DNA from: Balanoglossus misakiensis
Lineage: Eukaryota > Animalia > Hemichordata
DNA length: 64,000 bases
Direction: 5' to 3'
Assembly (NCBI GenBank): GCA_040954595.2
Contig: CM082591.2
Span: forward strand, 4,201,957 to 4,265,956
The notes under the pieces were generated by a model. That model did no database searches and had not been told where the DNA came from. It worked only from the letters and a program-made list of their open reading frames with translations. Each line of letters starts with the position of its first letter. Position 1 is the stretch's first letter. The translations under genes were made by a program, and so were the position numbers. Shown piece by piece: positions 5,317 to 62,511 of the stretch.

Positions 5317-5326
5317 CCATAAATGG
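5317..5326. promoter_or_regulatory. CArG box (SRF site) downstream of the predicted first exon of TnT-A
   Basis: CCATAAATGG matches CC(A/T)6GG; SRF CArG boxes are typical of muscle structural genes. Confidence 0.45.
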
Positions 5327-6441: not shown

Positions 6442-9400
6442 ATGGCAGACGAAGCTGACGAAAGAGCTCGCCGCCGTGAAGAACGCAGAAGGAGGAGGGA
6501 GGCTGAAAAGTGAGTGGTATTTTCTGTGTCTATCATTTCTGTGATTAACAGCAGTTTCTCATTGCATCGAGAACCGACAAAATGGTCCCCTGACCAGACC
6601 TATAACTTTGGTGCATAGCGCCCTCTCGTGACGACTGCCGACCTTTACGACCTTTGAGTTCAATAAAAGTTTCGATCGCTAATAAATAAAATCCAGTGTA
6701 TTTTTCTCTAAAATGTCTATTTTTCGTTATTTGCAGGGCTGCTGAAGGAGAAGCCGCCCCGGAGGTAGGGTTGATCATGTAATTTTTCGAAATTATGAAA
6801 CAGGGTATAGGCTGAAGAATTTTGAATTGTTGGGCCAATATTCGTTTTTTTTGTCAATATTTGATATTTTCATGGCCCGACCATTTTCCCTTTCCAAGAA
6901 GGGTGCATAGCGACTATTTTGATAACGTGAAATATTCCTATGTCAAATAACTTGCAGATAAGGATGGATGTTTATAATCCATGTGTCGTGAACATGTTGA
7001 GTATCATTTGCTGCAGTACTGTGGCTCAGGGTTTTACCAGGAATTGTGTGTGGACGACAAACCCAGACACAACACCTGGCATAAACTCGAGCTACAGAAC
7101 TACTGCAAGAGTATTCCCAGGTGTACATCATGGATGGGAAGGAATTAACAAACATACATTGTTGCCATCAAAGGCAAAAAACAATAGCTGACCCTTTACA
7201 CAGACAATACCAAATCCCCTGTCATTGTTCAGTGTCTTATATGTTATCCCTTGTCATGCTATTCTACATCAGGAAGCCGCCCCAGCTGAGGAACCGGAGG
7301 AAGTAAGTCAAGTGTGACCCTCCCCCCTCCCCTTAATCCCCTCCTCCCTCCCCTCAACATTGTCAATTACATACCCAAACTCACTTACATCCCTTGGTGT
7401 GCTGTGACACAGTGTTTGGTTTCACAACCTCTTACAGTTTTGACAAACATACACATCTAGTGGAAGATATTTTCTACTAAATGTTTGTTATTTATGTGCA
7501 TTTTATGTTAATACACAGCTGCATTGCAAGCCTGAGTTCTAATGCGCATGGTGTTGTGTTGTTTGCATTTATTGTTTCAAGTTTCTACAGATGCCCCATT
7601 GGCTTAAATTCAAAAATTATTTCAAATAATATGAAAGTGTATTAGAAGGTCTTTCTATTACTTGCCTGTTTTTGTCTTTAGTTTTGCATTTGTGTGTGCT
7701 GTGTCTCATGATTTGCATTTGTCTACACTTTCTTTTATTTTCAAACTTTTTATGTATCTCTCTGTTCTGCCTGGCCTGTTTTAAAACAATAAAAGGCTCA
7801 GCCTGAGGAGGCTCAGCCTGAGGAAACACCTGCAGAAGTAAGTGGGTATGATGCTGATGCCCCTTAACTTGGTGTCTGTGATCAGTGCCCCTTAACCGAG
7901 TGTGTCATTATCCCAGTAGCCCCTAACTTGGTGTGTATTTTTCAGTCTACACACATATTGACCACGCATCATACCTTTGAGTGTTTGTTTTGACAAATAC
8001 TGTTTGGTGTTGAAGCCCCTTTTCCCCCCAAGTTTTCAGATGTACATACATCCTCACACAGTTTGATGTGGATGAATTGGCACAAACTCTGTCTTTAGTC
8101 TTCAAGTCCCTGTCCTTCTCAAGAAATGTTATTTTTGATGAGGAAAGTCTCTACAATGGAAACTAAAACAGGCCTGCATGATATCCCAACCTTTCAGTAT
8201 CCGTTTATACTGGATGATAGGGTTTTCTTATGATTTGCATGTTATTCTGTCTTCTTTCAGTAGTATTTCTTGCCTTCATTTCTTCAGTTATTTTGTGCAT
8301 GTTAAGTTTTCCTACTTTCAGTTTTATCTTCCTTTTGTTTATGTAGTTTTATGATTTGCATGTCATTCATTTCTTTCTTTGTTTTGTTATTCAATATTTA
8401 TGTTCTATTATCATAACTAACTTAATTGTAAAATAATCGTAAACTTAGGAGGCTCCACCAGAGGAGGCCCCAGCTGAGGAGGCACCGGAAGAAGTAAGTG
8501 GGTAGCATGATGCCCCTTAACTTGGTGTGTTCCTGCTGACCCTTGACCGGACGTGTCATTTCCTGGTGTGCCAAATAATTTGGTGTGCCAAAGTGATTCA
8601 CTCTGACTTGAAAATGATTTTTTTTTTGAGTGCGGTGTGCACACATTGTCTACCCCTGTTCAGAACCCGGTGTGTGGGTTTTGATGAAGTTGTGGTGATT
8701 TCCTCAGTTTTACTCTCAAATCGGTCGAACCTTTCAACATGGAGTGGTGCAGAAGTCAATCAGCTAGTGTGTTGTGCCATCTAGCTACCAATCCTCTTGA
8801 GACGTATTTTCACACTCCCAGCCTCACATTTCAGTTATAATTTTCACCTTGCATGATTTTCTCTTTGATTTTGCCTTTTCTGTTTTATTTCTATCTTGCT
8901 TTATTTTCTTTCATTACTTTTGTTTTTAACTTACAAAATAAAAATAACTTTGACAGGCCGCACCAGAGGAGGCTCCCGTAGAGGAGGCACCTGAAGAAGT
9001 AAGTGGGTAGCGTGATGCCCCTTAACTTGGTGTGTCAAATTCCTAAGCCCACTAACTCGGTTTGCCTATACCCAATGCCCCTTAACTCTGTATTTGTGTG
9101 AAATTACAGGGGCTATTGAACTTTCCCAGTGTATTGTTTGAAGCCCTTTGAATGAATTGGTACTTTCCCCGTTTTCAAATATTTTCAATTATTTCTCAGC
9201 TCACCCCTTTCCCTCCCTTTGAAAAAAATTTGGTATATGGTTTTGAATTTGCATGTTGTGTATGATGGCCAAACCCTTGCCATGTATTACAGTGTGATAC
9301 AAAGACATCATGGTTTTGATCGTACATTATGATTTGAAGTTACTGGTTGCCCCTGTACTGAGATTGAGTGATTCTAACCTCTACCCCCACCTGCTGTCAG

Positions 9401-12400
9401 TTAACCCTTTCACCACCATGGTTTGATCCAAATCTTGTTTTCTATGGCCTGTAAAGTTGGACCTCTACACGGCAGACGGAAATGGGGGTGAAAGGGTTAA
9501 ACTCCTCAGGAGAAGGAGGTTATGATGGAGTCAGGTGTGTCAATAGCACACATGGACTTTACATGCAGATCTAAAGAAAGGAGCGTCTGATATAGTACTC
9601 AGGAATCTAATCCATGTTATGTCTGTCTTCAACAGCCTCCAGCAGAGCCGGAACCAGAACCGGAACCGGAGCCAGAACCGGAACCGGTTGCACCAGAACC
9701 AGAACCGGTACCGGAACCTGAACCTGAACCAGAAGTTCCACATGTAGAAAAACCTAAACCCAGGTCAGAAACCTACTTGGCTGTCAACATGCATCTTCCA
9801 AATACTCTTTTGCCACATACAGGGCAGGGTAGACTTACTATTTTCGAAATACCAGAATCCCTTCCGGAACAAAAACCCTGTGTTTTATCCAGAAATTTCG
9901 ATTCTGTGTGTATTTTTAATTGTCTGTGCTGTATTGTCTTTGCAACTGGACATGTAAAGCACAAAAATCCGACCTGTGAACTTTAGAATATTGATAGGTA
10001 TGATCGCAATTATTTATTTCTGATTTAGCAAATACATCTGATGCTTTCACGGCCATACCTTAGTTTAGTCCAATCTTTTTCTTTGGTTTAAACTTGAACT
10101 TGTCTGTCCTGTCCACACTCAGGCCACCAGCACCATCTGTAAGTGAACCGGATGCACCACATGAAACAGATGCACAGCGAGAAATGAGAGTAAGTCAGAT
10201 TGGATACTCTAAAAAAATTAACATGTTGTATTTTTACGGAAGCATACAGATACGACGTGACTGACTTACGAAGATCTCATCATGATTTAAGTGTCATCTT
10301 TCTTGTGCATCCATTTAGATTATGCAAGAGAAAAAACGCAAGGAACAAGAAGAAGAATTCCGGGAACTTCTGGAGAAACATCATGCTGAAAGGAGGCAAC
10401 TTGAAGAAGATCTTGACAGGCTGAGAAAAAGAAAAGTAAGATAATTTACCAGTGCCAGTAATAGTGGACTCTTTGGATAGTATCTGGAAATTCCAGAATA
10501 TATTTATTCTCAAACATATTTAAATGGTGTCAAATTCTTTTATAAACTACTCCCAGTACTTTGTGCCTTAAATGGTGAAAATGCAGTTTAGTGAAAAATG
10601 AAAACTTAGCAACATTTTGCGCTAAACTTAAATTATGTCTGTAATACATACAATATCCTCACGTATGTCTGAACTATTGATAGGAACAACGTAGGAAGGA
10701 GAGACTGGAAAGAGAGGCAGAAATGCAGAAAAGACAAACAGAAAGTCAAACCAAGGCAGAGGTAAGTAATAGCTAATTTGTTGAAAATTTAATGTTTTAC
10801 CCTATGTCACTTTATATGGATACACGAACCCGGTTGAAAATGGTATTAGATGGTTATACCATATGGACAGGGTTATAGTAAGTGTGATTTCGAACCTTTA
10901 AAAGAGAATTTTGTCTGTTAAACTTCAAACACATATGTAATGTTATTGCAGCCTTGCCCACAACTGACTGCCTGTATTTTTATTTACAGGAAGAAGCACG
11001 CAAGCGCAAGGAAGAATTGGAGATTCGCAAGGCTGAAGCAGCCCAGAAACGTATGAACCGTGAGAAGGCTCGTATGATGCAGTTCCAGGGCACCATGGCA
11101 CTTCAAGGAGGTGGCGATAAGGTGAAACATGATTTCATTGTTATATATGATTTTCTGCTCACTGAGATATCTCACAAAACTTGGTTAATTACAGTAGCAC
11201 AAACACTCCAGACATCACTTCTTTGTTTTGCATGGGAATTTCATATAGCTTTCTTTTGTCGATTTGACTGTGTTTAATAAGTCTTGGGTGGTTATGAATA
11301 TTTGTTATATGTTCCTCTTCATATGACAGTGAATTTTGGATCATGAATAGTTATGATTGTTGGGTTATGAAAAAGTTACCAGATAATGACACTGTAACAC
11401 TAGACTATCATGTCTATAGGGAAATAATAACATTCTTTAGAGGAAAGTAGCATCAATACAGTATATATTAATTAGTATGCTCATGGTGTCCCAGGTCAAG
11501 ATTAAGACCGGCAGCAAGCAGAGGAGAGAGGAGAAGAAAAAGTATATGGAAGAAAAAGTTCCAGAACTGAAGATCGGAGTTATGAGTGGTGAAGAAACTC
11601 TGAAGGAGAGAGTTCGCGAATTCCATAAACTACTTGAGGTCTGCCTAAATGGACTTGCTGACCTGAAAGCACAGGAGAAATTACAAGAATATGATGTAAG
11701 TCTAGTGATTATACTTTGCTTATACACTTAGATTTTTTACATGATTTGTTACATGATAGTCTATTGTGTACACTTAGATTTTTTTTCGCTGAAAATCTGT
11801 CCTTTTATCTGACTGAATATGAAAATGATTATGTAAAATTACCGAATATTTAATTTACAGTCTTGTTGAGAAAAATCGTCACTGGCTAATTGTATATAAA
11901 CTTTAATTATTACAGATGCATGAACTGAACGAACGTATCAAGGATATGCAGAAGAATGCGTAAGTTTTAAATGTTTCGGATAAATGACCTCTCCCATACT
12001 GACCACCCCACCCTTACAACTATTTTATCAGAAAATACTGTTTATTAATTTCATAGAGAGAGGCAGCAGGCAATCCCAATGTGTCCACATACACCATTTT
12101 CCATCATACCATCTACCCATCAGCCTGTATTTTCATCAGAAACATAGCTAGCCCTATAAGTAATAATTCTAGTTTCTCAAGTGGTTTAAATTACTTTTTT
12201 CTTTTCGTTGTAGTCCCAAGAAAGATGTTGCTAAACTTCTTGCACAGGCGGACAAGTAAGTTACAGTTTAAAGGAATACAATCTTCTATAATTTACATGT
12301 GTCCATGTATGGTGTAAAAAGTCATGTCTAAGTCCTATATTTTCTCATAGAATTCTATGTGATTAAGGTGAGAACATTTTTAATAAGGTGAAATGTAAAA

Positions 12401-12895
12401 ATCAATGTAAATCTTTCACACCTGATTTCATGTCTCTATTTCTCTGTTCCTACAGGAAGAGCAAATTTTCCGAAACCCAGGTAAGTGATCTCTGCCAACC
12501 CGTCAACTCTGGAGGTTGTGTCAGGCACTGATAAGCAATTTTGCTACGTATTTTTATTACTATTACTAGCTCCCACTGCAGGAATACACAAAAGGATACA
12601 TACATCTTGTTAATGCATCAGACAGATATCTTTTCTACTGACATATCATGATGATTGAGCATGTTCAGTTCCGCTTAGATAATTACTTATTACATATTGT
12701 GGCAACTGAGCATGCTCAGTTCTTTTCCTGCTGAAGGTAATTTGCATTATCAGTGAGTGATTTCACCAATAAGCATTCTCTGTGAATATACACTATGTTT
12801 TTCCTCATCATAGGTTTTTATTGCCTCATTTTTCATCACATTTGTTGTGTCTTCACGTTCATAACCATTCTCCCATTAATGATTTGCAGAAATAA
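6442..12895 (+). CDS. TNNT: Troponin T-like protein A (~364 aa), multi-exon; terminal exon uncertain
   Basis: In-frame exons with GT-AG boundaries: 6442-6509, 6737-6764, 7273-7302, 7796-7837, 8449-8493, 8957-8998, 9636-9763, 10123-10189, 10319-10435, 10684-10761, 10990-11121, 11495-11695, 11916-11959, 12214-12255, 12456-12480, 12890-12895 (AAA TAA, tentative). Acidic E/A/P N-terminus, then a T1 helix (IMQEKKRKEQEEEFRELLEKHHAERRQLEEDLDRLRKRKEQRRKER) and an IT arm (REEKKKYMEEKVPELKI...LKERVREFHKLL...LQEYDMHELNERIKD). These align by eye with vertebrate TnT segments EKKKKILAERRKVLAID and QKYEINVLRNRIND. Confidence 0.85.
9401..9500. mobile_element. ~100-bp MITE with TTAA ends (piggyBac-type termini)
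   Basis: TTAACCCTTTCACC...GGTGAAAGGGTTAA perfect terminal inverted repeat, inside a TnT-A intron. Confidence 0.8.
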
Positions 12896-18253: not shown

Positions 18254-21200
18254 ATGTCGAGCGAAACGGATGCCGAAAGGTTAGAGAGACTCAGGCGCCG
18301 AGAGGAGCGAAGACGCAAACGAGAAGCGGGAAGGTAATTACAGTTAACCTGTCTATACCGGACATCAAGAGACTGCAGCAGCTACTATAGTGTCGGGAAC
18401 AGACAGACCTGCAGGTAGACCTAGTGCCGGAATGGGCTCAGTCAGATCCCTCCAAGCATAGACCACGTTGTAAAGGCAACCGGTGAAGTAAACCCACAGC
18501 AGCTCTATCGATTAAGGCCTATACAAATGCATGGCTGCAGCAACAATACCGACAATCTACCTTTTGTTGTTGCCAGTAACTTTCTATGTACAACGCATTG
18601 ACGCTTTAGCTTTGTTGTTTGCCGTCGAACCATGACACGACTAGTTAGTAGCATCATGCATACAGCATAGACGGTCGGACCAAGTGCCGATGGTGATTAC
18701 AATGACTATACGTTGGCCATGAGCGATTTTGTGTTGTCAGTGGTCGACTTAAAATCAAACTTAAGAATTTACACCTGCTTAAAATGGCCTGTATAAGTAC
18801 ATTGGAGGAGGAATAGAATATAATTACCTGGAAAAATTTAATGTCAATAGACAGTTTCTCTTGAGGAAGTTGTCCCTTGAAATTATTGCTGCAATATTGT
18901 CAAATGACTTCGGAAACTAACCTGACTCGGTTCATAAATTATTTCTGAAAGATTTTGCTTCTCGGTATTGTTCTACAGATCAGCTCGAAACGCTGAACTG
19001 CAAGTCGAAGCCGATCCTGAAGACGATCCTGCATCCTTCTATTTGAACTCTGGGAGGAGTTCTGAAGAACCGTCCGAAAATGGCCATGTTGTCGAGAACG
19101 GGTTGGCGACATCGTTCGGGGACGATGGCCCCAAGGTAAGGCGAATTCGTCAAGTCACTGTGTGGTAAAACACCCAGGTGTCGCCATTGATGAGAGAGCG
19201 ACTACGTGAGCAACGCGCTATCCTTTTGGCCAGCTACTAACTGTTCAATTGGACGCTGCTCTTTGATTGGTCAAAATCAGCTGTCGACGACTCCAAGCAC
19301 GATACAGATTTAGGAATTGCATAAAATGAGTAATTATGGGCGAAACTGGAAGAAATGAATTAATTGAAGCAGCCGCCACCACCAAAAACCACCAACACCA
19401 CCACCCAGTCCAGGTGTACGCTTAATCACCCCGGCCCACCCCCTGTAAATACTGAAGGCTGCCTAAGTTGTTTTGACATTATTATTTGTGTCTTTCAAGG
19501 AAAATGGATCGCTTGGAAAGGAAAATCTCGAGGAAAGACGGCCCTCGGCCGGCAGGTAAGACACACGACAAATGTGCATAATTTAACCAACATTATAATA
19601 AGTATCGCGAGATCTCACATAGAGCGGAAAATGATATATTCTACTTTAATAGGATGCATGATAGCTGACCAAGTAAGCACATAGCAACATTCTAAGAGAC
19701 TTCACTACATATACATGCACAGTAAGTTCGATGCCCTATGCAACATCATGTCTCGGTAATTGCTTCAATTCATTCGTTCTTTTTTGTCGTTTGCTTTGAA
19801 TTGCTTGCTTCGTTGCCTAAAGGAGAAACTCACTTTTGGGTTACAGAGTTAAGTCACCTAAACAATGGTCTCCGAAAATAATATGGTATAAAACAGTATA
19901 CATCTTCAGAAGTGGAGTGTTTATTGTTGCCTTTTCCCCTCTGCTTGCTAATATCACATGCCTGCCAAGAGTGTTTACAGGCTACCCTTGCAAGAATTAA
20001 CTTGAATTTTGTTTTGTGTGAGTTTGAAAAGATGGAGTCAACTGGGCTATAACCCGAGGGGGTTTCCGAGGGGTTTCCGGAATGCCTTTGAGACCCTGAA
20101 AAGGGGCGTGTAATCATTAAAAATGATGTTTAATATCTCACTGTATTTTACGAAATGTTTAACTAACTGCGTGCGTGTGGGTTTTTAAATTTGGATTTTA
20201 GTGATGTTTTTCGTCACCGTCTTTGTGATATGCTGTGTTGTGACGATGCAAATTTGCCAAATATGGCATCTTTACACTGAGCAAAAGGGTGTATATTTGA
20301 GTGCAACTCAGCACTGATATCAATCATTTTTAAGTCATTATAATTTACGTTTACTAAATATTTCCTCCAGGGCACAATTGGCAGTCAGTGTTAAACCCGG
20401 AGAAGAAACAGATGTGCAGTCTGAATTTGCTGTGAGTAAAATAATAATGTCTCTATTTTGGTTTTGGGAAGCTATGTATACAATTATCAGGGTACACATT
20501 CAATAAAGAATGTAATTTGGTGCAATTACTCCGTCTCCCTTAGCTGCTAATTTTATCCAACAAAAAATTGCCCGGGTATACGAGTTCTGAGCTTAGGTGC
20601 AACACTTTTCGCCGAAAACATTGTAGTAAGCCTCAAATACTGTATAAAAGAAATGGAAAAGAATAAAAAAGGTGCAAAACTGAAGCTACTAAACTTATAA
20701 GAATAACTTGTGTGTAAATAATGTAAAAAAAAGATAAAACAAAAAATCTGGCCAGTACGGGGCTCGAACCCGCGACATTCGCGTTATTAGCACGACGCTC
20801 TAACCAACTGAGCTAACCGGCCATGCTTACTAATGGCTTACTTTGCATAGTAGATATAGTTTGTAGTACGCGTAATGTCTATTCAATTTTTAACAAAAGC
20901 ACGAACACAAAACACGATTCAGTCAGCCTGTGTGAAACATTTTAAGTGAAACCGGTTCTATATAGTACCTAGCTGGGCAATGAGTCTTTCGTTTAGACAT
21001 TTCACAGGCTTCGGATTAGTTGGGTCGTGACGCGTCGGCGCTCGGCCGCGTACTCGGTGGGTTTTCGGGTCGCGCACGCATGAACACGAGTACGGCTCAA
21101 ACATTTATCTGCTTTAATATCTATAGAGTTTATCCGATCAACAGACGCCTGTACGTGATTGTACCTGGCCTGGGCCACATGTGCATTCAACTAAATCAGA

Positions 21201-23571
21201 TTGTGCTGGACTATGAAAACGAAAAAAAATCTAATTCACTTAGCTTGTTGGATAGAAAATGGAATAGAGTAGGACTTTCGACTGGCTTGAAATGTCCATG
21301 TAATAAAGTGTTTCTTTCCTTGAGTAAGTTTCTGAAGAAATTTATTATTCTTTGTTACACCTGTCGCCTTTTCTTGCAGGAGATGCACGAGAGACTGAGA
21401 CAGGAAGAAGAGCGGAAGGAACGGCAGTTGATGGAAGAGCGTGAAGCGAAACGTCAGCGGGAAAATAAAGAATGGGAAGAGATGAAAGAACGGAGGGTAG
21501 GAGAACTTTCAGTTCTCGTGAAAAGTTCCTGTATAGACTTGTTACAAGCTGGGCGTTATTCATATGAGGAACCTGTTGATGTTGGCCTCCATTGAATAAA
21601 CGAATGATGATAAAAAATAGAACGAATATCGTCTGATTACAATTATCTGTCGTCCCACTCTGGACATATTGATTCCCATTTGATCACAAAAGCAAAACCA
21701 TCCTTTTGGTAATTTTAGGAACGCCGCATGCGTGAAAGGGAGGTCGAAGAAAAGGCAAGGCAGGAACGAGAGAAGGAAATGCAGAAGAAAGCAGAGGTAT
21801 GTAACCATGGCGACCGGAAGTTTCCAATTGGGTTGCAATGAGTCAAAATCTCGATGTTCTGCTGTACTCCAAAATCATTGCTTCCCGACAAACTACTACT
21901 TTTGACCGTAGAGAAGCAAAATTCGCATCCATCAATAATTCATATTCGTGTCCTCTCTGTAGGAAGAAACCCGCCTGCGCAAGGAGAAAGAAGATCAGCG
22001 AAAGGCCGAACTCCAAGAGAAACGGAAAAACCAAGAGAACATCTTGACTCTAAACAAAGGAATCATGAAATTGGCCGGTCATCTCAGTTTGAAAGTAAGA
22101 AAACTCACCCCATCCTGTGATTTTTGTGCCTATAACACCTGTGCCTTGCCACGCAAGATGTCGCGTGTTCTCGTTGAGTTCGGAAAATGGCCTATTGATT
22201 ACGTGGTCTATTTTCTCAGGAAAATATCCGCCGGGCCAAGGAAGACGCCGGGAAAAGTAACAAAGAACTGGAAACGCAGAAAGAAGCTGCATTGGCTGAG
22301 AGAGTACCGCCACTGAAAAGTAATGGCTCAAGACAAGACATGAAAATGTATGCGCACGAACTCTATGAACGACTGGAACAAGCTCTAGATAATGTCTACG
22401 ACCTTCGTCAGCGAAAAGAACGCCAAGACTATGACGTGAGTTCATGTCTTTCCCTGACTCTGTTCTGTCCGTCCACCCTCTCTCGATATGAGCAACTTTA
22501 ATCCCATTTACCTGTTCTTGGTGACTTTGGTCACGTTTTGAACTCTCCTGTTTTCCTTTTGCAGTTGAATGAGCTGGAAAAACGCCTTGGTGTAATGAAA
22601 AACACGTGAGTACTCTTTTGAAGCCAATATATTATCTGATAGCACTATAACGCAATTTCTTGAACCAAGATTCACTAGAACGACTTTCACGTCTTTTTTT
22701 TGCTTGCACACAGGGCAAACACACCAAAAATTCTGAGCCAAGTTGGAAGAGTCAGCCGTCTAAAGGGTATCATGTCCGAAGACCAGGTAATTATAAGATA
22801 AAACATTTCCTGACGGTTTCCAGTGTAGAAGGAAGTTTTACGCAATATTCGGCATTTTATTTCATTTACAATGAAATGTTTTCCATCCCTTTCCCGAGAT
22901 TATTCATAAGGAATGTGGTAAAAAGTAACGATTTATTGTTTGCCATAATCTGCAGTGTGATACAAAGTAACAACCACATTGTTTGAAATGCTACCAAGTA
23001 GCAGCTGTGTCGTCGACTCCCGCAGCCCCAGACAGGACGACGCCCACTCTTTAACATAAGTAGAGAGGGCCAGGTGGTTCTACGCAAATTTGCGCTGAAG
23101 AAAAATGGCTGTTGGAATGGTGTTGTGATGAATATGATTAAGGGAGCCCTAAAAGGCAAAGGGGAGATTTATAAAACCTACAAAATTTGTCATTTCTTCC
23201 CCCAGAACGCAAATACCGTCACTCCCGGCAAATCTCGCTCCCAGCGTGATCGGGAGGAAGGCAGCATTGGCAAAGGAGGGGTTCACGGGCGATTGGCCAT
23301 GTTTGAACAAGGTGGAAACAATAGTCCATCTCAAAGAGGCAAGGTGAGTAATCGATTCTTAAACGCCCCTTTGTTCTTTTGGGGAACTCTGTCAATAATC
23401 CTTGCATGATAGACCTAAACCCGAAACCATGTATACGTGTCTGTATGTGTCTGTACAGACAAATGATGAGTTACCAAGATATCTGCTTGCATATCCATTT
23501 TACAAAATGTCATATTAATATTCTCTACTCCTTTCTCCTTTCAGCCACCACCACAGATAAAACTGTACTGA
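18254..23571 (+). CDS. TNNT: Troponin T-like protein B (~391 aa), multi-exon
   Basis: Exons 18254-18333, 18979-19135, 19500-19555, 20371-20431, 21380-21496, 21719-21796, 21963-22094, 22220-22435, 22565-22605, 22714-22786, 23206-23343, 23545-23571 (PPPQIKLY-stop); phases are consistent throughout. Contains KSNKELETQKEAALAERVPPL and VYDLRQRKERQDYDLNELEKR, matching the invertebrate TnT signature (YDL..R..RQDYDL.EL..R). Core exons of 117, 78 and 132 nt are identical in length to those of gene A. Confidence 0.88.
20749..20822 (-). tRNA. trnI-AAT: tRNA-Ile (anticodon AAT)
   Basis: Reverse complement GGCCGGTTAGCTCAGTTGGTTAGAGCGTCGTGCTAATAACGCGAATGTCGCGGGTTCGAGCCCCGTACTGGCCA (74 nt) folds as a cloverleaf with intact A and B boxes. 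A T-run terminator follows on the minus strand (A6 at 20741-20746 on +). Confidence 0.97.
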
Positions 23572-26586: not shown

Positions 26587-29500
26587 CTACTTTTCCACTT
26601 TCTTCAGTTGAGCACGGAGATCCACTTTATCCTAATGGGAGGAAGACCATTTTCAAAAAGCATGCACATTAATTTCCAAGACAACAAAATCATGCTACCA
26701 GGGTGTGGGTCTCTGGGCCATGTTTCACATCACAATTTTTTTTTGCTCAAATAAATTTTTTTTGCAGAATTATGAAATACTTATTCATATTGTGAAGGTG
26801 TGAACAATTATTTCTGGTGTGTGGGGTTTCTTGTCAGGGCAATAAATATAAATATCTGGGATGGAGATGATTGTTGGAGTATGGAGAAGGTTCTGGAAAA
26901 TGGTGCAATTATACAATCCAGTTCGACAGATGATTATTGATCAAGTAGGCAAAAGAAAATTGGATTGAACGGAGATGTTTTTAATTCTAGTTATTGTCAA
27001 AGCTAAAATTTCTTCTTTTGTATGCGACAAATATCTTTAATTTTCATTTGACCTTTGAGGATGTATTAGTAATGAAAATACTCAACATTTTTAGGTCTCA
27101 TTTTCTTTCATTTTGCAATGTATTCAAACTGTGCTAATCTAGACACTTTGCACTTTATCAAAAGCAATGCGAAACTAAAGTCTCAAGTAAAACAAAATCA
27201 TCAGTTCATTTTTCAATCAAGGTAAAATAAGAGTTTTCAAGTTTTTCTGTTTATGAAGTTCAAGAGGAGACAAATACCAAACCAAACAAAACAAAACAAA
27301 ACAAATCAGGCAAAAAAACCATACCATTGAAATAGACATGGTATCCACTCATTGTGGTCAAACAGTGCAATCATTCCGATTGAAAAAAATTGTCATTACA
27401 AAAAAAGTGCATTGCAGGCTATCATGTTAGTACAATGCTCCAATACGCGAACAATGCAAGAAATTCCAAGAACGATGTGTCTTTCTAATGCATTGCGAGA
27501 ATCAGCCATTTTTACATACAATTCTTTTTCTTCATCCAACAAGTGGGCATTCCTTAATACTACATTCTGTTAAAATATCTCCAGTCAACATTCAAATCAT
27601 TTTCACTTTCGTGGTTTTGTTCATCACTTATGTGAAATTCAGTGCACAGGAAGACTGGAGCCCATTCTGTCTCTTTTGAACAGCTCTCAGTGGGTGGAAG
27701 GGATTGAGGTGGATTGGGGAGGAGGAGGGTAGTGAGGAAGGGGGAAAAAGCAGCGAGGATCACACTTACATCACCCTCACTTACGTCAAGACCCTCCGAA
27801 GCCGACTTTCTTTCGACGCGCTTAAGCTGTACATCGATGCCCTTCTTTTCTGCAATCTTGTCATCAAATTTATCAGTGCGCACCACTTTCTTCAGGGTAG
27901 GTTTGACACTGGAGAGGCAAGCAGAGAATATCAGACATATTTTAACCCCCACCCACCCGTGTAATCCCAACAACAGTAAGGCTTAGAATGATCTACCACA
28001 CCACTTGTTGTCCATCATGTGAAAATTGGCTGCAATGATGTGTGTTGCAAATACACAAAAATCGCGTCAAGGACACGGTGGTCCCATTGAGTGATTATAC
28101 AGACAGACACACACACACATATATATAGAGAGATCAATGGGCAAACACTGACTGACCCATAAGCTGCAAATGGCATATGTACTGTACATACACTAATTAT
28201 AACAGCTGGCCTCTTTAAAACTTAGCCAGTTATGTAATCGGACATACAGACATACATCCATACAGGCACAACGATCCCATAAGGTCCCATGGTACATACC
28301 AATGGGACCCAACAACAATCTAATATCAGACTGTCGACACAGAGATCTGATGGGACGATGAATGCCAAGATGAACTGTATAGCTCTCAAATCACAGCAAA
28401 AGAAGGCGATACAAAAGCTTGGGGTGTGTTGCACTGACCTGCGTTAACAGATCCCGTGAGGAGTACGGTGCCCAGAGTGCTAACACATCCCCAATACGAA
28501 CTCATGGACACAAACTATTTACATTTCTACGTCCAAAACTTTAACTACAGTGAGACAAAACTGTTAGGCTTTTCTCATATTTAAATCAAGTATTGAAATA
28601 CAAAATAAAGTGTTAAAATGCAAAGAAGGCGATACAAAAGCTTGGGGTGTGTTGCACTGACCTGCGTTAACAGATCCCGTGAGGAGTACGGTGCCCAGAG
28701 TGCTAACACATCCCCAATACAAACTCATGGACACAAACTATTTATATTTCTAGGTCCAAAACTTTAACTACAGTGAGACAAAACTGTTAGGCCTTTCTCA
28801 TATTTAAATCAAGTATTGAAATGCAAATTAAAGTGTTAAAATGCAAATTAAGACCGACGGGAGTGGTTCTTCTTTTCTCCAATGAAGTTCAACTTTGCTC
28901 AATGGGCAAACACTGACTGACCAATAAGCTGCCAATGGCATATGTACTGTACATACACTAAATAGAACAGCTGGCCTCTTTAAAACTTAGCCAGTTATGT
29001 AATCATTCAGGAATTTGCTGTGTTTATGTGAATAACAGGAGGGAGTTTCTGCCTAATTAAAACAACTCAATAAAGTAAATACACACCACTTTGCAAAGCA
29101 ATCTGACCAGTAGTTCTTGAGTTACTGAGTTTTGACCAAATTCACATTTTTCCAACTAATTTGCATATTTTTGGCAATGACAACTTCATTTGAACAAACT
29201 CCCATCTACAGCCCAGCCTGCATCAGCACACCAAATATCAAGGTGATACACGCAGCGGTTTTCAAGTTTTTGATGTGGACGGACATACAGACATACATCC
29301 ATCCATACATACATACATCCGTACATCCGACGCAACCGATCCCATAAGGTCCCATTGTACATACCAATGGGACCCAAAAAATGGGAGTAATGTTAACAGA
29401 GTACGATAGTTCCATCCCATACACCACATATCAAGATCTCATACATGATTGTGAATGATGATTAACTTGTAAACACAGAAACATCTGTTACTGGCAACAA

Positions 29501-32500
29501 GAATCTTGTGAGGCTAAAAGGAAACTGACGATACGATGATATGTTCAAATCAACATCAAAACACAAGCAAAGACTTACAATTTGCCTCTGGCTTCATTCA
29601 CCCTGGATTTCAAGTCTTCAATCTATGGAGTGGAAGAAAATTTTTTTTTTTAATGGAACAGATGTTTTCCCACTCAGTCATTGAAACTAAAGATGTCTTT
29701 GTGAACAGAAAGAGGCAGTCGTAAATGTTAACAAGTGGACCACAAATCTCACTTCATGTTCAAACTTATACTGCACACAACATGTATCCTAATACATTGC
29801 ATACAGATTCAGGCCAGACCACATTGAAAGAAAGTCTTATTTGTGTTATTTGTCATATTTCTGATTTAATTTAATCATAGATTATTACAAATCTCGATTC
29901 ACCATCTATACCAAGGAAAAGAGATGTGATTGACCAAGTTATTGATACTGTCCAGCCGTGTGACATATACTGAACAAACCCAACTTACTGCTAGATCATT
30001 TTTCCTTATCACCATCTGGAGATCGTACTTCTCACTCTCGAACTTGTGAAGCTTCTCGTGAAGTTTTTTGACCAGTTCTGTCAGTTCGTCTTTATCTTTG
30101 TATTCGATATCGTCGATCTGGTTCAAGTGTTCCTGAATGAACTGCTCCTTTTCTGCAGCCCGGTCCGCCGCTTCTTTCTGCAAGTTCTCCTGCGCTTTTT
30201 TCATCATTTGTTTCTAGAACCAGAAGGGGAAGATATTGTTTTTTTCGGTCACGTACCTTGGTTTTCGACCTCACAGTTTCCTGCGTTACGGGGGGTCAGG
30301 TCAGAGGTCCAAGGTCATTCACAAAGAAAACATTTTCACTAGAGAAGTCTGCCAAACCCTTGAATGTTTGCTTGTTTGTTTGTTTGTTTGCAAGAAAAGG
30401 TATACTGAGAATGGTCCATTGTAGCCGAGCGAGGAGGAACGGTCCATTGTTGTGGGAGGGGGGAGGGGAAAGGGAGGTTTCCGTTGTGAATGACTTTGCC
30501 CAACCTTCAGTCAAAAAAATTTATAAACGAGCAAAAAAAATATAAAAAAAAATAATGCGGACATTCATTGCAGCTACAAACAGGGACTCCTGCAGAAATT
30601 GTTATTACACAGGAGGAGTTAGATTTTTTTTCCGGCAAGCAAAAATATGTACACAATATGGCTGATGCTGAATATATAGTATTTTTTATAGTCTTGAAAT
30701 TTCCACACAGCGATGTGATCTAACAGCAGCAATAGGCATAAACATTTTGATATTCTGATATAAATAGAGAAATTTGAATTTTCGTTTGGGGTGAATTTCA
30801 CCTGAAAATACACGGAACAGGGAGGGAGGGAACTGGCATGCAAATTTACGTGTTAGCCAAAAAGAATTGATAAAAATGTGCAAAAATATTTGTTAGTATT
30901 CAAGAAATGGAAAAGAGTGTCAATAAAAGAAGGTATACAAATTATCCTGGGGGTTAGTTAAACTGGCGTTATAGAACATCACAAATATTAGGCTTGGAAG
31001 CTAGTTGGATGTGAAGATTTATGCAGTGCAAAACTGATTTTCGGTTTTAGATTTTAAAAAGATGCAGCATTCGTTAGAGACAAATAAAAGGATCAGCAGG
31101 CCTGGACCTCCCTCCCGTAGGTAATAAATTGCTAACAAACATACAAGGGTCAGGACAATTATAACCTCTCCTGCTAGTCTTGTTCTCAGTGAAAAAAATA
31201 TCCTCTCCCACCCCTGCAATTCAGCACCAGAGAGAATGGCACGGCCCTCCCTCATCAGAGATTTGGAAGGTACCATTCTGGAAGGGGGTGAGAGGGGATG
31301 TATATGGACCTCCTTGGCTGTGTGACTGATTAGTGAAGGTAGTGGAGGAGGGTGTTTTCTGTTCTTTTGTTTATTTATGTTTTTTTATATTTTAATATCG
31401 TTTGAGTTTTATGTCGTGTCAGTGACCGGTACACACCAACCTTAATGTCAAGCCTACGTAGAGTCGACAAACCCCCCTTTTTTTTCAAGAGGGATCCGGC
31501 AGTCGATGGAGCAGCTTCTTTCTTCTTTTTTTTCTGTGGAAGAAGAGGGAGACGTTAGGAAACAAGGGCGTCGAGCCTGTTTTGACTGCTCTACTAGGAA
31601 GAGAGGTACTATAGAGAGAAAAAGAAAAAGAACGCCACCATGAATGTGTCAAGTGTGAGGCAGGGTAGGGTGGACAGAAGTCTTGCTAGTCAGATCTTGT
31701 CCTTTGATGGCATAGCCACACGAAGTGCACCACGAGCAGCGAAGGCACAAATATCGAACATCGCAGACCTCGTCGCGCTTCCTGTGTCTATGCGGTTGAA
31801 GGATACAGCAAGGTCTGTCTCGCGAGACTACGTGGAGAAGAGATCAGTCACTGAAATTGGGAGATTTGTTTCCACCATTTGAAACCATTGAATTCTACAT
31901 TTTTAAAAGCAAAAACTGCGTGTGATGTGCAGTTTGCCGTCTCGCGAAAAAGATTTTTCGGAAATGTTTAGTAATGCGATGATTGTGAAAATCTTTGTGT
32001 AAGAATTATAATTTCTCCCATGTCAATGACTTTATAAAGGAACCTTCACCAAGATGAAAATTTCGCAAAGCTGACGCACAGAAGAATTTCAGAAGAGAAT
32101 TATCAATTCTTTGCAAGTTCAAATTTTAAAGAGCAAAATCTGAATTCAGCCACAGACATAGCTGCACCTGATTGGTCACTGTCATGGAATTTACATATAT
32201 TGAAATTAGTTTATTTACATTTATGTAAATCAGGTGTATTTACATGTATGTAAATTACTTTATGTAAATTTATGTTAATGACAAGTTCAACCAATCAGAT
32301 GCATTGAATCACACAAACTATTATTATGGCTGAATTCAAATTCCATGCGCTTGTTTGTAGTTTGCCCAGACAGAAACGGGAGTTAGGGGGGATGGCAAAT
32401 GAACGAAACGAAATGTTGGCATGTACAGTGTAATGACCACAAAAGCAGTGTGAGAGGTGTAGCTGAGAATAAAAAATAAGCTGCCTGAAGTTGAAGATGA

Positions 32501-35500
32501 ATCTAGGGATAAAAACAAAAGCTGTATGAAAAGAAAAAAAGAAAGAAAAGCGATATCAGACAAGGCAACCAGAATGAGAGGAAAAACTAAAAGAAAAAGG
32601 AGGCACCTGAAAGTTAATGCTAGAAAGTAATCCCATCTTGCAGAAAGAAAAGAAAGAGCATACCGTGAGATAGAGAGATAGAGAGAGTGTGTGAGAGAAA
32701 GAGAGAGAGAGAGAATGCTAGCTAATATCAGCATGCAAGTTCATGAGATTCTTTCAAATGCATCATGCTGTTTCAGGTAAGCCATGCATGTTGGTAATAA
32801 GTGGCCATGTTTGCAAGCGATGACAAGGTGGGCGTAAACCCTCAACCCCTCGCAATTGGTTCAACCCTTTTGTTTTCAGTGATACGGTAGAATCCATATC
32901 AAGGAAAGCAAGGGGGAGATGGGTTATTTAGCCTGAAATGCACATCCCTTTGCTGACTTGTTCCATGTTCACCCCTTCACAACCATTTTTACAATGAGTG
33001 GTTTGGCCTAAATGTTGCAAAGAGGGGGTGGACAGGGTAACAGCTAGTTCCATCTAAATCACTGGATATTAATACATAACATATGTCCATTGCATCTCAA
33101 ATTATTCCACCTGTACATGTTGCCTAAAAGCCTTTGAACAATGTTTCATATTACAAGTTCGGACTGAGCAGGCTTTACCATGTGAATATATTTTTCAGAT
33201 ATAACGAAAATCTTGCAAAGCTACGGTATACATTTAATGGAACCAGATGTAAGAACGAAACAAACCAGCATATACAAGGACTTTGGTTGCGCATAGCAAC
33301 AGGAAATCTTTTCGGTTAATCTGGCAAGTATAATATGACATGGTATGAGCACATAGAACTTACCACGAGCTAACGTGGCAGGCAGCGTGCTATGAGATGA
33401 GCAATTAGTAGTCAACACCAGGGAACTATTAATAACACACTTTTTTTCAGTACTGAATCAGTTAATATCCCATTTTTTCAGCCTTTTGCATCAATTCACA
33501 GTTATCATGACTGTTTTTAGCGAATTTGATCAAAAGTGTTAATAATAACAAAACATTTTCGGGTTAGCTGGAAACTGAATATCATTATTGCAATTTGCAT
33601 AACCTGAGACCTACTTTGCATATGAAATTGAAAAAAAAATTGCTTTGGTTATTGGTGTGTTTTGAGCTTTCTGCTGGTACAGAAAGCGAGCTGCAAATAG
33701 ACCAGCTCATATTGTCTTTAGAGGATTAATATCATGAACGATTAATGTCAAAATGCAAGTCGTTTCTGAAGGCAAATTCTACTTGACAAAGACGTTTTTT
33801 TCAGCAAGTCTAAGAAAAGGAGACAATTACCTCTTCTTCATCTTGTCTCTTACGCTCCTCTGCTTCAACTTCTTGCTCTTGACGTTCCTGAAATGCAGGT
33901 TTCCATGGAAATGTTAATATATTTATATCAGCTTGCTGTGAAATTTCTGAAGACCAAATACACTTATAGGTACATGGTGGATGGGCAGAAAGCTATGACT
34001 ATTGTGATATAAGGAAGAGCAAGGCTATCTGGCAGCCACATTGAATTGTATTGCAAAACAAACTGACATGTACATATCATCAATATTACCACAGTGCGCG
34101 GTTATTTCACATGTAAATATCACAAAACAAGGCTGCCTAGCAGCCACACTGAATTGTATTGCAAAACAAACTGACATGTGCTGCATGGAAGAAGTCTGAG
34201 GATTCACCTGTTCTTGTCTTTGCCTTTCAGCTTCCTCTTCTTGTCGTTTGCGTTCTTCTTCTTGGCGTTGACGCTCCTCCTCCTCGGCCTGATCTTGAGC
34301 AGCGGCCTCTTCCTACAACAAGGCAAAACACCATATACGGTCATGACTTGACAACCTGCCAGGCCACCCAGCCATACATGGCAATGACTTGGCAAAGGGC
34401 CAGCCACCTCGACACCATGTATGGTGATAGCTCGGCAAAGTGCCAGGTCAGAGCCACCGAATGCCAAGAATAAGTGGGGCAAGACTGGCAAACTACCAGG
34501 GCTAAGTGCCACTACTTAATGCACCAAGACTGTGCCAAAAACCCTCCAGCACACCATTTCTTGCAACCATACATGGCAGTAAGATTCAATGCCAATGGTA
34601 CACAGAGATTTCAATATCACAGCATTGCTATGCCACAGGCCATGATTGCATGACAGATTCCAAACAACATCAAACACCCGCGCAAATTTACAGGCAAAGC
34701 ACCAAGAGTTGAAGCTTCAAAGATCGGCAACTAACTGATAAAACGTATTTTAAGGAACATCTCATTGACTTAATCTCTGTAACAGTGGCAATGAAACCTC
34801 ACCATACTTTCCCAACAAATGCAAAGATTGCTGCATATACTATTGGGGGAGGGGAAACACTCCACACTTTGAAATCACAGGATGACATTCAGGGGCGTGT
34901 TATCGCACTCTTGAAAAACAAACCCAGCACACTAGTTAGATTGCACACTCTGTTCAGGGGGAAATTGCACACTGGGTAATAGGGACCATACGTCGAGGCA
35001 TATGGCACCAGTTGTTGGATTGGAGGAGGGGGTGTCACACGCCACACCGCCTACTTACGTCCACCGCCGGGGCCTCCTCTGCAGGAGGAGCCTCCTCAGC
35101 GGGGGTCTCCTCACTCGGAGCCTCCTCCGCTGGAGCCTCCTCTGCAGGAGCCTCTTCCTGAGCCTCCTCCTGATTGTTTCATTTGAGTCGGCAATGACCA
35201 CAAAGACACACACAAACAGGCCAGACATACAGAGTAATTGACAGAGATACAGAGACACAGAGTTTTTGTGTTGGGAGATGTGGACAGTAGAGTAATGGGG
35301 AGGGACAGCACAGACAAGAAATGGGAGACAGAAATAAGGAAAGAAAAGCCAGAAAAGAAAATTAAGCAAATGAACAATAACACCAGAAATGAAAAAGCAG
35401 TAAATGAAATGAAAGTACAGAAATTGAAATTAAATGCATAAATAATGTTTCAGTGCACTATATTGAAAAGAAATAGAAAAGTACAGATTACAGAAATGAA

Positions 35501-38500
35501 AAGACTAACAAATGATAAAATTATGCAAATGAACATCTATCTCCCTCTGAGTGTAATGAAGTGCTCTCTCTTGGTTGACTTGCACACTAAATGTTGCATC
35601 ATACAGGCAGAGAAACGAGACCACAGAAATTTCATCACATCATTTGGGATTGTTTTGGTGCCAAGATGCAAAAGTAGAGCATTAGAAGTTGTGAGAGTGG
35701 GCAAAGTGTACCATATTTTCCTTCAATCAAGCTCAATGCATTCAGTGGCTCCTAAAGTTGAGTAATATGTTGCCTGATCATTCACAGGTGGTACATCAAA
35801 CCTTTTTGGAGTATCACAAGTTTATTCATATGTTGTCTAGACGGGTCATCTGTTACAATGTTATGGTGTCTAGACCGGTCATTTGTTACAATGTAACCAA
35901 CTAACTTCCTGTTGTTGGCAGTTATGTTGCCAAGACTTTGTAGTCTTTACACAAAGAGAAAATTGCAACAAAGTCTGGTCTGTCTGGTGCCTAATCGTGG
36001 GTGGAGCTTAAATGAAGGCTTAGACAGAAATGAGGAATACACTACACTACAATGTGATTCCAAGAGAGAACACTTTTGGAGAATGTATGGTGTATAAATA
36101 TAAAGGGAGGAAACTGCATACACTCAGCAATGTCTTTACACGAAGCAACATCACTACACCAACACACCAATACTTCAAAACCAAACACACCTACACAAAT
36201 ATGCATACTTGATTATCACACTCAAAGATTTCACACAAAATAAAATGTTTCCCCCCTATATGAAGTGTGATAGTTCACAATGTATATGGATTGGTTGAAA
36301 CCATGTGTCCGTGTAGGTAGCTCATAGGGGTGGCAAGAGTTACACTTACAGAGGGTGCAGAAGAGAAGAGTGTTTGCATAGTGCTGGGAAATCATGAGAG
36401 ACGGAGAGGTACAATACTTGGAAATTCATTTTTACCCTTGACCTCTGACAGGGAGACGTGATGGTGTGAAGAGAAAGAAAACAGAGGAGGCAGCGCGCGT
36501 GAAAGATGACTTCTTTATTTAATTTCAAGCGTTCAGAAAGATGGCGTGATTTGATGGTGGAGAGTTGAAGATGAAGAGTGAGGAGATGGAAGGAGAGAGG
36601 AAACGGCGTATTTTTTTTTCGCTACCTCTGCTCGTCGACGCTCCTCTTCCTCGCGACGGGCTTCCTCCTGACGACGAGCCTCTTCCTCCTGACGACGAGC
36701 TGCTTCCTCCTCCTCTTGTCGTTGTTGCTCCTCCTCTTCCTGTTTGCGCCTTTCTTCCTCCTCGCGCTCTCTGCGTCGTCGCCGCCGCTCGCTATAATCC
36801 TCGACGGGCTGATTGGTTAGTCCAAACTAATTATTAGTACAAACATTCGTATGCAGAAAACAATTCTCTAGTTCACCAAAAATGAAATCTAGCCTTGCAG
36901 CAATAAATTATAATTTAAATAAATCGTAATCATAATTTCTTGATTGTCAGATCACACACGAGCATTTTTCCGATGATCATAAAAAATACTACAGAAAACC
37001 AGCCAAAATCAGACATATCCACATACGTTCTGCAACACAACAGTGACATAAGATTGGATATATACAATTGGTCATAAACAGCATGTTAATTTATGCAAGA
37101 ACATGCGATTGGCTAAAACAAGTCATGTGAGTTATACTCCTAACACTGATTGGTGAAGAGTAAGATGACAGTATCGTCCAGAAATTTCTTTTTAGAAATT
37201 TTTTTTTCATGCAGACACAAGGCAATTAGTGTTTTCTTGGTTGTATTAACTCATCTGTGGTTTGCGAACTTCATTCTTTTGCCTGCACTTGCGAAACGCG
37301 TGTCTCCTTCGAGTTGGTGTTGTCTCTGTTGTACGTTTTTCCCTAATCGTTCCAAGCGGATGTGTGTGCTTTGGGAATTCGCGTTTACTCAGATATCATG
37401 ACACATGAAAGGTGTACTTATGCAATTAACCTGCACTCAATATGAATGCCAATTCTTGACAAAGAAAAAATTTGGGAAATCAGTAAACTTGCTCTCACCT
37501 CAGGAGGGCCGTTCTCTGATGTCCTGTAAAACAAACAAAAGGGAAAAAATGGGCTTCAGAACATACACCACAGCCAAAAACTATGAGGGAAAATGCTGTC
37601 TTTACCATACCCCATGATGGCAAAACAAATGCACCTTATCTCTCAATGTAACAAACCCACTCTGGTACACCCCTTGTCAAATGCAAATAGATCTGAGTGC
37701 GCAACAGTAACACAACATTTACTTGTGTTAGTTTTCGGAAAGCCATGATAGTTTTTGAACAGTCGAGTGAAAGTTAAAGCCATGGGCAGGATTTCAGTTT
37801 TGTACTCCGAGAACAAGATATCATCTGTTGAACATTCAGGTGCCATCTTGTTTTTGGAGTATTTAACTGAAAAAAACTGCAAGCACATGATCTGCTTTTG
37901 AAGGTACAGAGCAAGAAATACAACACACAATTTTGTCCATTAGCTGAAACTTCTAGCTATTTTTTTCATCAACGGCTCTTCCTTGTTTGTCCAGTATTGA
38001 GTTCATCAACCTTATTATCAACTACATGGAGTAGAACAAGAAACAAGAAACTGTAGTTGATACATACTGCAAAAAATAGCCAAAAGTGACAGCTAATGGA
38101 TCTTTCACAAAAACCCATAAGACGATATCAACCCAGAGAAATTGACCATTTTGTTACCAAAAACCAAAGGACAGAAAATTCTGTTATTTACATTACATGT
38201 ATAAAGCCATGAAGCATGCACACAAGATGTCAACCCTGACACCAGTTACTTAAAGGCTGTGCCCCAAAGTTTCCAATGGTACATTCCATTCTATCATGGA
38301 AGACTATGGGGAAACTTGGCACTTTCATTAGGATTCAGGGGATGATGTTAGAAGAGATGAGTTAAGAGATGAATTGTAACATGGAATGGTGGACTATAAA
38401 TGCAGCTACAAACTGTCGGGTTATTAAATATTTTTTCGGCCATGCACGCACAATTCACGCTGCCGTCTCCTCTCCTCTCGCCTCCGCCGAAGGGCTTCCA

Positions 38501-39305
38501 AATCGAGATCTCCCGATGACGTGGTATCGTTCGTTTGTCCGGCCGCTGCTGCCCTGGAGTAAATGAACAACCATGCAACAAACATGCAGCTACGGTTAAT
38601 GGGGGGACACTATACTACATGTACAACGCTTCGTTAGTTATTTTATACTGTGTTGTCTCCTATTGTATTAGGATGACTGGTAACTACGGTGATACTGAAT
38701 TGACAGTACTGTAACTTTGGTATATTGTTAGAGTTGGTTGTAGTTTTGGTGTGGTGCTGTTACTAGGCAACGGACTGACAATCATGCACAGTCACTGAAA
38801 CTGTGAGAGAAGTCATTGTACACATATGTGCCACCATTGCTTGTGGAGAGACATTACAGCATTTTGACATTTCGTTGCCCAGTAATACAAACACAGCCTA
38901 AACTTATTGTGACAATGTTGTTGTGATATGGTGTTGCGTTGTAAAGGGAAGGGTTAAGACAAACTCATACATCCTCCATCACAAATGCGACAGGCCTGTT
39001 CTTCTGGAGTACAGCCTCGCGGAAATACTTTCATTTCACATCAACCTCTGATGCAAAACAAATGTTCATAGTTCAAAAAAAGTGTAAACGAACAAAAAAC
39101 GTCAACATATACAAAATCGCTAGTACATGTATAGTGTTATCACATTAAAATTTTAAGGCAAACAAGTACAATAGACTACTGTAATTATTGCATTATTGGC
39201 ACATTTTCTACAAATTTGTCATGAAAAAGTTTCTCACTTTTCAGCTTCTCTTCTTTTCCTGCGTTCTTCGCGGCGGCGGGCTCTCTCATCTGCGTCGTCT
39301 GCCAT
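26587..39305 (-). CDS. TNNI: Troponin I-like protein with long N-terminal extension (~393 aa), multi-exon
   Basis: Minus-strand exons: 39305-39238, 38553-38452, 37523-37499, 36808-36626, 35169-35059, 34312-34208, 33887-33831, 31533-41 region read as 31533-31441, 30213-29989, 29622-29579, 27908-27785 (alternative donor 27770), 26631-26587 (DKVDLRAQLKKVEK-stop). The core reads KKKGGLSTLRRLDIKKQMMKKAQENLQKEA...LHKFESEKYDL...IEDLKSRVNEARGKFVKPTLKKV, which includes the TnI inhibitory peptide in its invertebrate form RGKFVKPxLKKV. Confidence 0.9.
28070..29380. mobile_element. Composite non-autonomous repeat insertion (DINE-1/Helentron-associated-like) in a TnI intron; boundaries approximate
   Basis: Two copies of a tail with a (CATA/CAGA)n microsatellite plus a stem-loop (28239-28313 and 29280-29377; perfect 10-bp stem GGTCCCATTG-N7-CAATGGGACC at 29348-29374). 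A 105-bp block is repeated at 28135-28239 and 28900-29004. Confidence 0.55.
28399..28845. repeat. Tandem duplication, 223-bp unit x2
   Basis: AGAAGGCGATACAAAAGCTTGGGG starts at 28401 and 28624; only a few substitutions separate the copies. Confidence 0.9.
32968..33040. mobile_element. Truncated, degenerate MITE copy in a TnI intron
   Basis: CACCCCTTCAC...GGGGGTGGACAGGGTAA; weak similarity to the same family. Confidence 0.4.
34023..34179. repeat. Short direct repeat (~49 bp x2, period ~108)
   Basis: GCAGCCACA.TGAATTGTATTGCAAAACAAACTGACATGT occurs twice. Confidence 0.75.

Positions 39306-57418: not shown

Positions 57419-62511
<5,093 letters not shown>

Follow-up and report, generated by a model that had tools for sequence, protein, structure and literature searches.

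How do two different subunits of one muscle complex come to begin with almost the same exon, and what might such an exon do? These questions arise in a stretch of 64,000 nucleotides (nt) from the acorn worm Balanoglossus misakiensis (contig CM082591.2, positions 4,201,957 to 4,265,956 of the forward strand), hereafter the window, in which one troponin I gene (TnI) and two troponin T genes (TnT-A and TnT-B) are predicted. The first coding exon of TnT-A (6442..6509, + strand, peptide P0001) and that of TnI (39238..39305, - strand, peptide P0002) both encode a predicted charged helix. Both exons start with ATG, measure 68 nt, end in phase 2 and are followed by a GTGAG donor. The two peptides are identical at 21 of 23 residues, and the codons differ by 9 synonymous and 2 replacement changes (12/69 nt). 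An earlier note on this DNA had claimed the near-identity; its positions, length, phase, donor, residue count and nine synonymous codons were all reproduced. The peptide is built from six residue types and contains 10 basic and 8 acidic residues.

In proteins of relatives, the exon is seen joined to the cores of both subunits; for the window genes, the same joining is predicted. P0003 is a complete TnI of 269 residues on a contig of 1,479 bases, which is likely a transcript. It opens with the peptide (22/23 to both window copies) and is 87.6% identical to the short TnI model of the window over 251 aligned residues. P0124 and P0127, two TnTs whose contigs measure about 2.3 kb, also have the peptide at their start (22/23). 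The Saccoglossus TnT (P0126, LOC100371934) starts with a peptide 23/23 identical to that of TnT-A, as do all 15 isoforms listed from a cluster of 43, which are predicted RefSeq models. P0123 and P0125, two of the four representative hits, have the look of bacterial-type repeat proteins unrelated to troponin; they were set aside together with P0146-P0149. No TnI protein of Saccoglossus or Ptychodera came up in the homologue searches, and scans of metagenome contigs for relatives' DNA gave 239 and 590 pattern matches, none of which was confirmed. Lys-Ala-Ala, said to open the exon that follows, does so in both window genes (TnT-A from 6737; TnI from 38553), but this continuation is not retained in P0003, P0124 and P0126.

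The motif was also claimed for TnT-B and for the second exon of TnI, and an Arg-rich motif in a phase-2 exon is indeed found in each. The first coding exon of TnT-B (18254..18333, + strand, 80 nt, phase 2) holds a diverged copy, which matches TnT-A at 14/23 residues and TnI at 12/23. TnI exon 2 (38452..38553, - strand, 102 nt, phase 2-2) carries a second Arg-rich motif; it is missing from P0003 and found in Ptychodera and echinoderm TnI. The exons with an ATG are likely the first coding exons rather than the first exons of their genes, because a pyrimidine tract and an AG lie 16-29 nt 5' of each ATG. A candidate donor of a 5' non-coding exon of TnT-A is located near 4990.

The two cores differ greatly. 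The window TnT-A and TnI cores match at 23/143 positions, against 21/23 in the exon. A tree of 20 cores (the three window models, 13 drawn from the 120 TnI hits, and four TnT hits, with isoforms and the truncated P0145 excluded) separates TnT (6) from TnI (14) at 100/100. The approximately unbiased (AU) test rejects a tree constrained to group the TnT-A cores with acorn-worm TnI (p-AU 5e-5). The TnT-A core is 58% identical to P0124 and 48% (113/233) to Saccoglossus P0126. T1 and T2 are names used for regions of troponin T; the T1 exon sizes of 117, 78 and 132 nt are common to TnT-A and TnT-B. The Pfam Troponin family (PF00992) matches TnI exon 29989-30213 over the cut-off (44.8 bits, E=1.9e-11) and P0003 at 72.6 bits. 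It matches the TnT-B exon at 27.1 bits (cut-off 26.2), the TnT-A orthologue P0126 at 27.4 bits, the T2 exon of TnT-A alone at 18.7 bits (E=0.0023), and P0124 not at all. In the inhibitory region of TnI, the Gly, Phe, Pro, Leu, Lys and Val columns are nearly invariant in 22 aligned rows including P0003; in the window this stretch spans exons 29579-29622 and 27770-27908, after the coiled coil. AG/GT ends are present at every modelled junction of the three genes. By the tree and the AU test, the cores are true TnT and true TnI.

A peptide of only six residue types might resemble another through chance or convergence of Glu/Arg tracts, or TnT-A might really be a duplicated TnI, for which the score of its T2 exon under the Pfam cut-off could be taken as a sign. 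None of 500,000 plain shuffles reached 21/23 (maximum 18), nor did any of 500,000 run-preserving shuffles (maximum 17) or 50,000 best-offset shuffles (maximum 16); the identity is thus not expected from low complexity in Glu and Arg, the point on which the earlier note had made its own reading depend. Natural Glu/Arg tracts also fall well below this level. Among 147 proteins compared, many with long tracts of this kind, 18 scored 22-23/23 (15 Saccoglossus TnT isoforms, P0003, P0124 and P0127), 6 scored 14-15 (sea-cucumber-type TnIs) and 123 scored at most 13. Exon length, phase and donor are identical besides, and the tree and the AU test put TnT-A with TnT. An origin by chance or from a duplicated TnI is barely credible; the shuffles, the protein comparison and the tree already refute it, unless the gene models are wrong.

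On which subunit is the motif at home? It occurs within the first 35 residues in 12/120 TnI hits, namely P0003, Holothuria and five near-copies, amphioxus TNNI1, Mytilus, Arion, Candidula and Owenia, and in none of the named arthropod, nematode and flatworm TnIs among these hits. In the accessible part of the supplement of PMC9825255, all 12 occurrences of a seven-letter core of the motif lie in rows labelled TNNI, from five echinoderms. The Asterias TnI, counted by eye, matches TnT-A at 19/23 and the window TnI at 17/23. Branchiostoma TNNI1 and P0003 are 31% identical. From these comparisons, the motif is the conserved start of a long N-terminal extension of TnI, and it is old on that subunit. 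Among the TnTs compared, only acorn-worm-type proteins (P0124, P0126, P0127 and those of the window) carry it. It is absent from the three echinoderm TnT-type rows seen (Lytechinus, Strongylocentrotus and Patiria XP_038047732), from two amphioxus and five tunicate TnT rows (one partial), and from the mollusc TnTs P0143 and P0144. The TnT-A peptide matches acorn-worm TnI at 21-22/23, sea-cucumber TnI at 14-15/23 and amphioxus TnI at 13/23, and it matches acorn-worm TnI far better than lophotrochozoan TnI.

Patiria XP_038047732 bears a TNNI label in the PMC9825255 supplement, yet it matches the Acanthaster TnT oki41-27/gbr182-40 of PMC5888912, which is of the TnT-A group. It is likely a TnT, judging from its sequence.

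Between the TnT-A and TnI exons, the proportion of synonymous differences (pS) is 0.71 (10/14.2 sites) and that of nonsynonymous differences (pN) is 0.036 (2/54.8; Fisher p=1.7e-7). The peptide is under strong purifying selection. Identity of the flanks (16/60 and 15/55) is at background, and comparison of the window with itself by blastn, screened for query starts at 3-26 kb against subject starts at 17-46 kb, gave here a single match of 73 nt, the exon plus the donor. Residue 17 tracks the gene, with Arg in 3/3 TnT-A and Lys in 2/2 TnI. Background flanks and a gene-specific residue 17 make recent gene conversion unlikely; low synonymous divergence and similarity reaching into the flanks, the marks of such an event, are both lacking. 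Purifying selection without recent conversion, as had been claimed, is thus upheld. The synonymous sites, however, are not fully random. The same codon is used at 11/20 shared residues (6.6 expected, P=0.028), and 8/8 shared arginines keep their CGN or AGR class (4.35 expected, P=0.007), which favours an old copy or an old conversion. TnT-B retains the same codon at 5/8 residues and the arginine class at 5/7. This codon memory fits a common origin of the exons younger than the split of TnI and TnT. Meanwhile, Arg18 and the same Met spacing are found in TnT-A and both acorn-worm-type TnIs, and Lys18 in 6/6 echinoderm TnIs and in TnT-B.

We propose that the first coding exon of TnI was copied onto the linked TnT-A before the split of Saccoglossus and Ptychodera and then held by strong purifying selection, an account that sequence comparison makes moderately probable. 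The TnI start exon would have reached its neighbour by exon duplication or by one old gene-conversion event in the cluster, after which selection on the peptide would have kept both copies nearly unchanged; the diverged copy on TnT-B may represent an earlier transfer or an older state. Direction, timing and mechanism are each likely rather than observed. A transfer from TnI to TnT is favoured because the motif is old and widespread on TnI and exceptional on TnT. An old date agrees with the 23/23 identity of the Saccoglossus TnT and with flanks at background. Ptychodera gene models PF10037-PF10040 have consecutive identifiers, and Acanthaster oki41-27, -28 and -31 are near one another; these identifiers suggest that the TnI-TnT cluster is old in Ambulacraria and that linkage would have allowed an exon to be copied.

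Several points weigh against this proposal. The peptide evolves so slowly (13/15 over the core in amphioxus TnI, by eye) that divergence alone is unable to date the copy, and its occurrence on TnT-B would fit a motif that has been on TnT for longer. The codon tests were chosen after the fact, are not independent of each other and cover 20 codons, and codon memory could also come from constraint on splice enhancers. Arg18 occurs in amphioxus TnI as well and may be ancestral. The absences on TnT refer to a single isoform of each gene, and some of these may be incomplete; the N-termini of a third ambulacrarian TnT clade (PF10040/oki41-28) lie outside the comparison. Furthermore, the accessible part of PMC9825255 argues, for Glu/Pro-rich stretches, that N-terminal likeness of TnI and TnT may predate their split.

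The exon might instead go back to the ancestral gene from which TnI and TnT descend, kept separately by both acorn-worm genes and lost from the TnT of protostomes, chordates and echinoderms. The slow evolution of the motif on TnI, its place in a phase-2 first coding exon of both TnT-A and TnT-B, a pS near saturation and the proposal in PMC9825255 (from its accessible part) of an N-terminal extension older than the split would all agree with such retention. TnT would have to have lost the exon at least three times independently, however, and retention leaves the far closer match of TnT-A to acorn-worm TnI than to sea-cucumber, amphioxus or lophotrochozoan TnI, as well as the codon memory above chance, without an account; we consider it unlikely. 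The earlier note had offered retention and exon shuffling side by side. Both are possible, but they are not equal, and copying from TnI is favoured since the TnT side is the exceptional one. On the other hand, short conversion tracts might have homogenised the first exons of TnI and TnT-A repeatedly. The split from Saccoglossus is several hundred million years old, and residual synonymous identity despite this age would be explained by such concerted evolution. A distance of 33 kb separates the two genes, which are inverted relative to each other; the 73-nt block common to both takes in the GTGAG donor, and a second likeness of 39 nt exists between Glu/Ala/Pro-rich exons of the two genes. Against repeated conversion stand the 10 synonymous differences in 14 sites, the background flanks and residue 17, which goes with the gene and not with the species, so that we regard it as quite improbable.

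The second likeness concerns a predicted optional Glu/Ala/Pro-rich exon of TnI (35059..35169, - strand), which is absent from P0003 and is 87% identical over 39 nt to TnT-A 8449-8487 (+ strand). It could stem from another exchange, this time running the opposite way, or from convergence of low-complexity sequence.

What might the peptide do at the start of two subunits? In predicted structures it forms a confident, separate helix (residues 3-26 in P0124 and 2-27 in P0003), after which come some 80 coil residues in the TnT model and a helix of 68 residues in the TnI model; the predicted template modelling score (pTM) of both models is about 0.3, and no global fold is claimed. A sequence search of PDB with P0001 gave no match at E up to 10, and the ESM Atlas gave no usable match for residues 1-26 of P0126 or 1-95 of P0003. 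For pairing of the core exons of the window TnI and TnT-A, structure prediction gave weak support, with a score of 0.58 against 0.02 for the best control; at least 97% of contacts recur between runs and the local confidence (pLDDT) of the partners is at least 74. The mark for pairing was passed by 51/78 solved and 2/108 mismatched pairs, and at scores of 0.60 or less by 5/78 solved pairs and all 4 passing mismatches of 180; the score may reflect likeness to the solved troponin core. In the picture proposed here, the cores of TnI and TnT-A would bind each other on the thin filament, and if they do, the helix would be present twice in every complex.

We speculate that the exon supplies a short helix of charged residues on the end of a long spacer, which would be the Glu/Arg helix in TnI and the Glu/Ala/Pro coil in TnT-A, and that this helix docks on myosin (the neck or the region named S2) as the N-terminus of caldesmon does, tethering the thin to the thick filament. 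A myosin tether is suggested by analogy and put forward tentatively, at appreciably less than an even chance. It was chosen because ambulacrarians are reported without troponin C (TnC) in the accessible parts of PMC5341096 and PMC5888912, because echinoderm muscle is described as myosin-controlled, and because of the layout of caldesmon, whose N-terminal region, carried on an extended body, binds the myosin neck. TnC was counted as 0 in five ambulacrarian genomes and is present in amphioxus, and its binding switch region is reported missing in sea-urchin TnI (PMC5341096). The likeness to caldesmon that the earlier note had drawn found no support in Pfam: no Caldesmon match came from 10 queries at E up to 1 or from 11 at E up to 10, in searches where HMMER filters drop weak, biased matches. 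A further point against the tether comes from molluscs, in which TnI reportedly performs its basic function without needing the extension, according to work cited in PMC5341096.

Given the shared exon, the helix might equally remain on the thin filament, docking on acidic surfaces of tropomyosin or actin, or it might bind calmodulin in place of TnC. In favour of this are the Arg-rich core, where basic residues (10) outnumber acidic ones (8), and the place of troponin itself on actin-tropomyosin. In the accessible parts of PMC5888912 and PMC5341096, calmodulin is proposed as a substitute for TnC and the tropomyosin sites of ambulacrarian TnT are described as poorly conserved. Long spacers, however, suit reaching away from the thin filament. 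As to calmodulin, its targets use a large hydrophobic anchor, which the peptide does not have, and the motif is also carried by the TnI of amphioxus and of molluscs, animals that do have TnC. We give docking on the thin filament or calmodulin a chance only a little below even. Coming back to the myosin tether, one may imagine the TnC-less troponin of acorn worms as a caldesmon-like cross-link, in which a myosin-docking exon of TnI was grafted onto TnT, two identical helices reach out to myosin, and the invertebrate TnI extension finds its explanation; taken as a whole, this picture is doubtful.

Parts of the system are already known. The N-terminal extension of invertebrate TnI (sea urchin HpTnI, LC187281, PMC5341096; Acanthaster, Asterias, Anneissia and Holothuria; amphioxus paraxial TnI) has the same Arg-rich start, long Glu/Arg helix and TnI core, and in echinoderms it also has the second motif and the text of the next short exon of the window TnI. 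What differs here is a near-identical exon at the start of a TnT as well. In Ptychodera, the published model of TnI (PF10037) omits the shared exon and begins in the intron before exon 2, which may be the reason why the exon went unnoticed. By eye, PF10037 matches TnI exon 2, the preceding intron and optional exon 36626-36808, PF10039 matches TnT-A, and PF10038 and PF30774 match TnT-B. TnT-A and TnT-B fall into groups of the ambulacrarian TnT orthogroup of Inoue and Satoh 2018 (Sakowv30002104/LOC100371934, PF10039 and PF10038; PMC5888912). In the accessible part of that paper, the TnT alignment starts at tropomyosin-binding site 1 and a TnI-like first exon is not remarked on, and the echinoderm members compared here are without the motif, while Saccoglossus RefSeq TnT models already contain the 23-residue start.

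Vertebrate TNNI-TNNT pairs (PMC9825255) are likewise linked genes with N-terminal likeness between TnI and TnT, but that likeness is loose, compositional and Glu/Pro-rich, drawn from reconstructed ancestors; here it is an exon with 21/23 identical residues that agrees in length, phase and donor as well. Caldesmon (CALD1) is alike in layout, with an N-terminal region, an extended middle and a C-terminus that binds the thin filament, and CALD1/LSP1 paralogues adjoin the vertebrate TNNI-TNNT clusters. Accessible parts of PMC9561149, PMC12305882, bioRxiv 10.64898/2026.03.23.713758, PMC2226187 and PMC2447309 were drawn on as well. Public records already contain the motif on TnI and the TnT sequence of Saccoglossus; an exon common to acorn-worm TnT and TnI was not reported in the literature searched, which covered few subscription journals.

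The shared exon bears on what the long extension of invertebrate TnI does and on how TnI and TnT work in ambulacrarians reported without TnC (PMC5341096, PMC5888912). A helix of 23 residues that is unchanged between TnT orthologues with 48%-identical cores, and present in two subunits, singles out one short peptide for binding assays. N-terminal likeness of TnI and TnT alone is no proof of descent, as copying of exons in a linked cluster is likelier here. The organisms are little studied and the function of the exon is a prediction, which limits the interest.

The predicted TnT-A gene (6442..12480, + strand) has 15 exons, which comprise the shared exon, phase-0 mini-exons rich in Glu, Ala and Pro (7273-8998), a Pro/Glu exon, the T1 exons and the T2 exon (11495-11695). 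Its 3' end is incomplete. Exon 13805-13852 was considered as a continuation and rejected, being out of frame after 12480, and no tail was found among the 30 tblastn matches listed. Mini-exons 4-6 (7796-8998, + strand) are tandem duplicates with common donor-side intron sequence, and dozens of isoforms of the Saccoglossus TnT vary in the corresponding Glu/Ala/Pro region.

The predicted TnI gene (26587..39305, - strand) has 12 exons. After the shared exon come optional extension exons (38452-38553, 36626-36808 and 35059-35169), Glu/Arg helix exons, the core exons (31441-31533, 29989-30213, 29579-29622 and 27770-27908 in the gene model) and a last exon (26587-26631). A candidate mini-exon of 24 nt with AG/GT ends (30257-30280, - strand), which is not in P0003, precedes a TnI core exon, and the exon starting at 27908 has two alternative donors 15 nt apart (27770-27785, - strand).

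The predicted TnT-B gene (18254..23571, + strand) has 12 exons, with its T2 exon at 22220-22435. A late exon (23206-23343, + strand) shows a Gly-Gly-Val...Met-Phe pattern that is also present in Patiria XP_038047732 and has no Pfam match; we take it to resemble the C-terminal repeats of caldesmon. A tRNA-Ile(AAT) lies in a TnT-B intron (20748-20823, - strand). A third TnT, the counterpart of Ptychodera PF10040, may lie upstream of the window, as no troponin-like exon rich in Glu, Lys and Arg was found at 1-6400 or 40000-58000. Farther along, at 58262-61846 (- strand), exons of a TIP49/RuvB-like gene are found (Pfam TIP49), which is presumably RuvBL2 by likeness.

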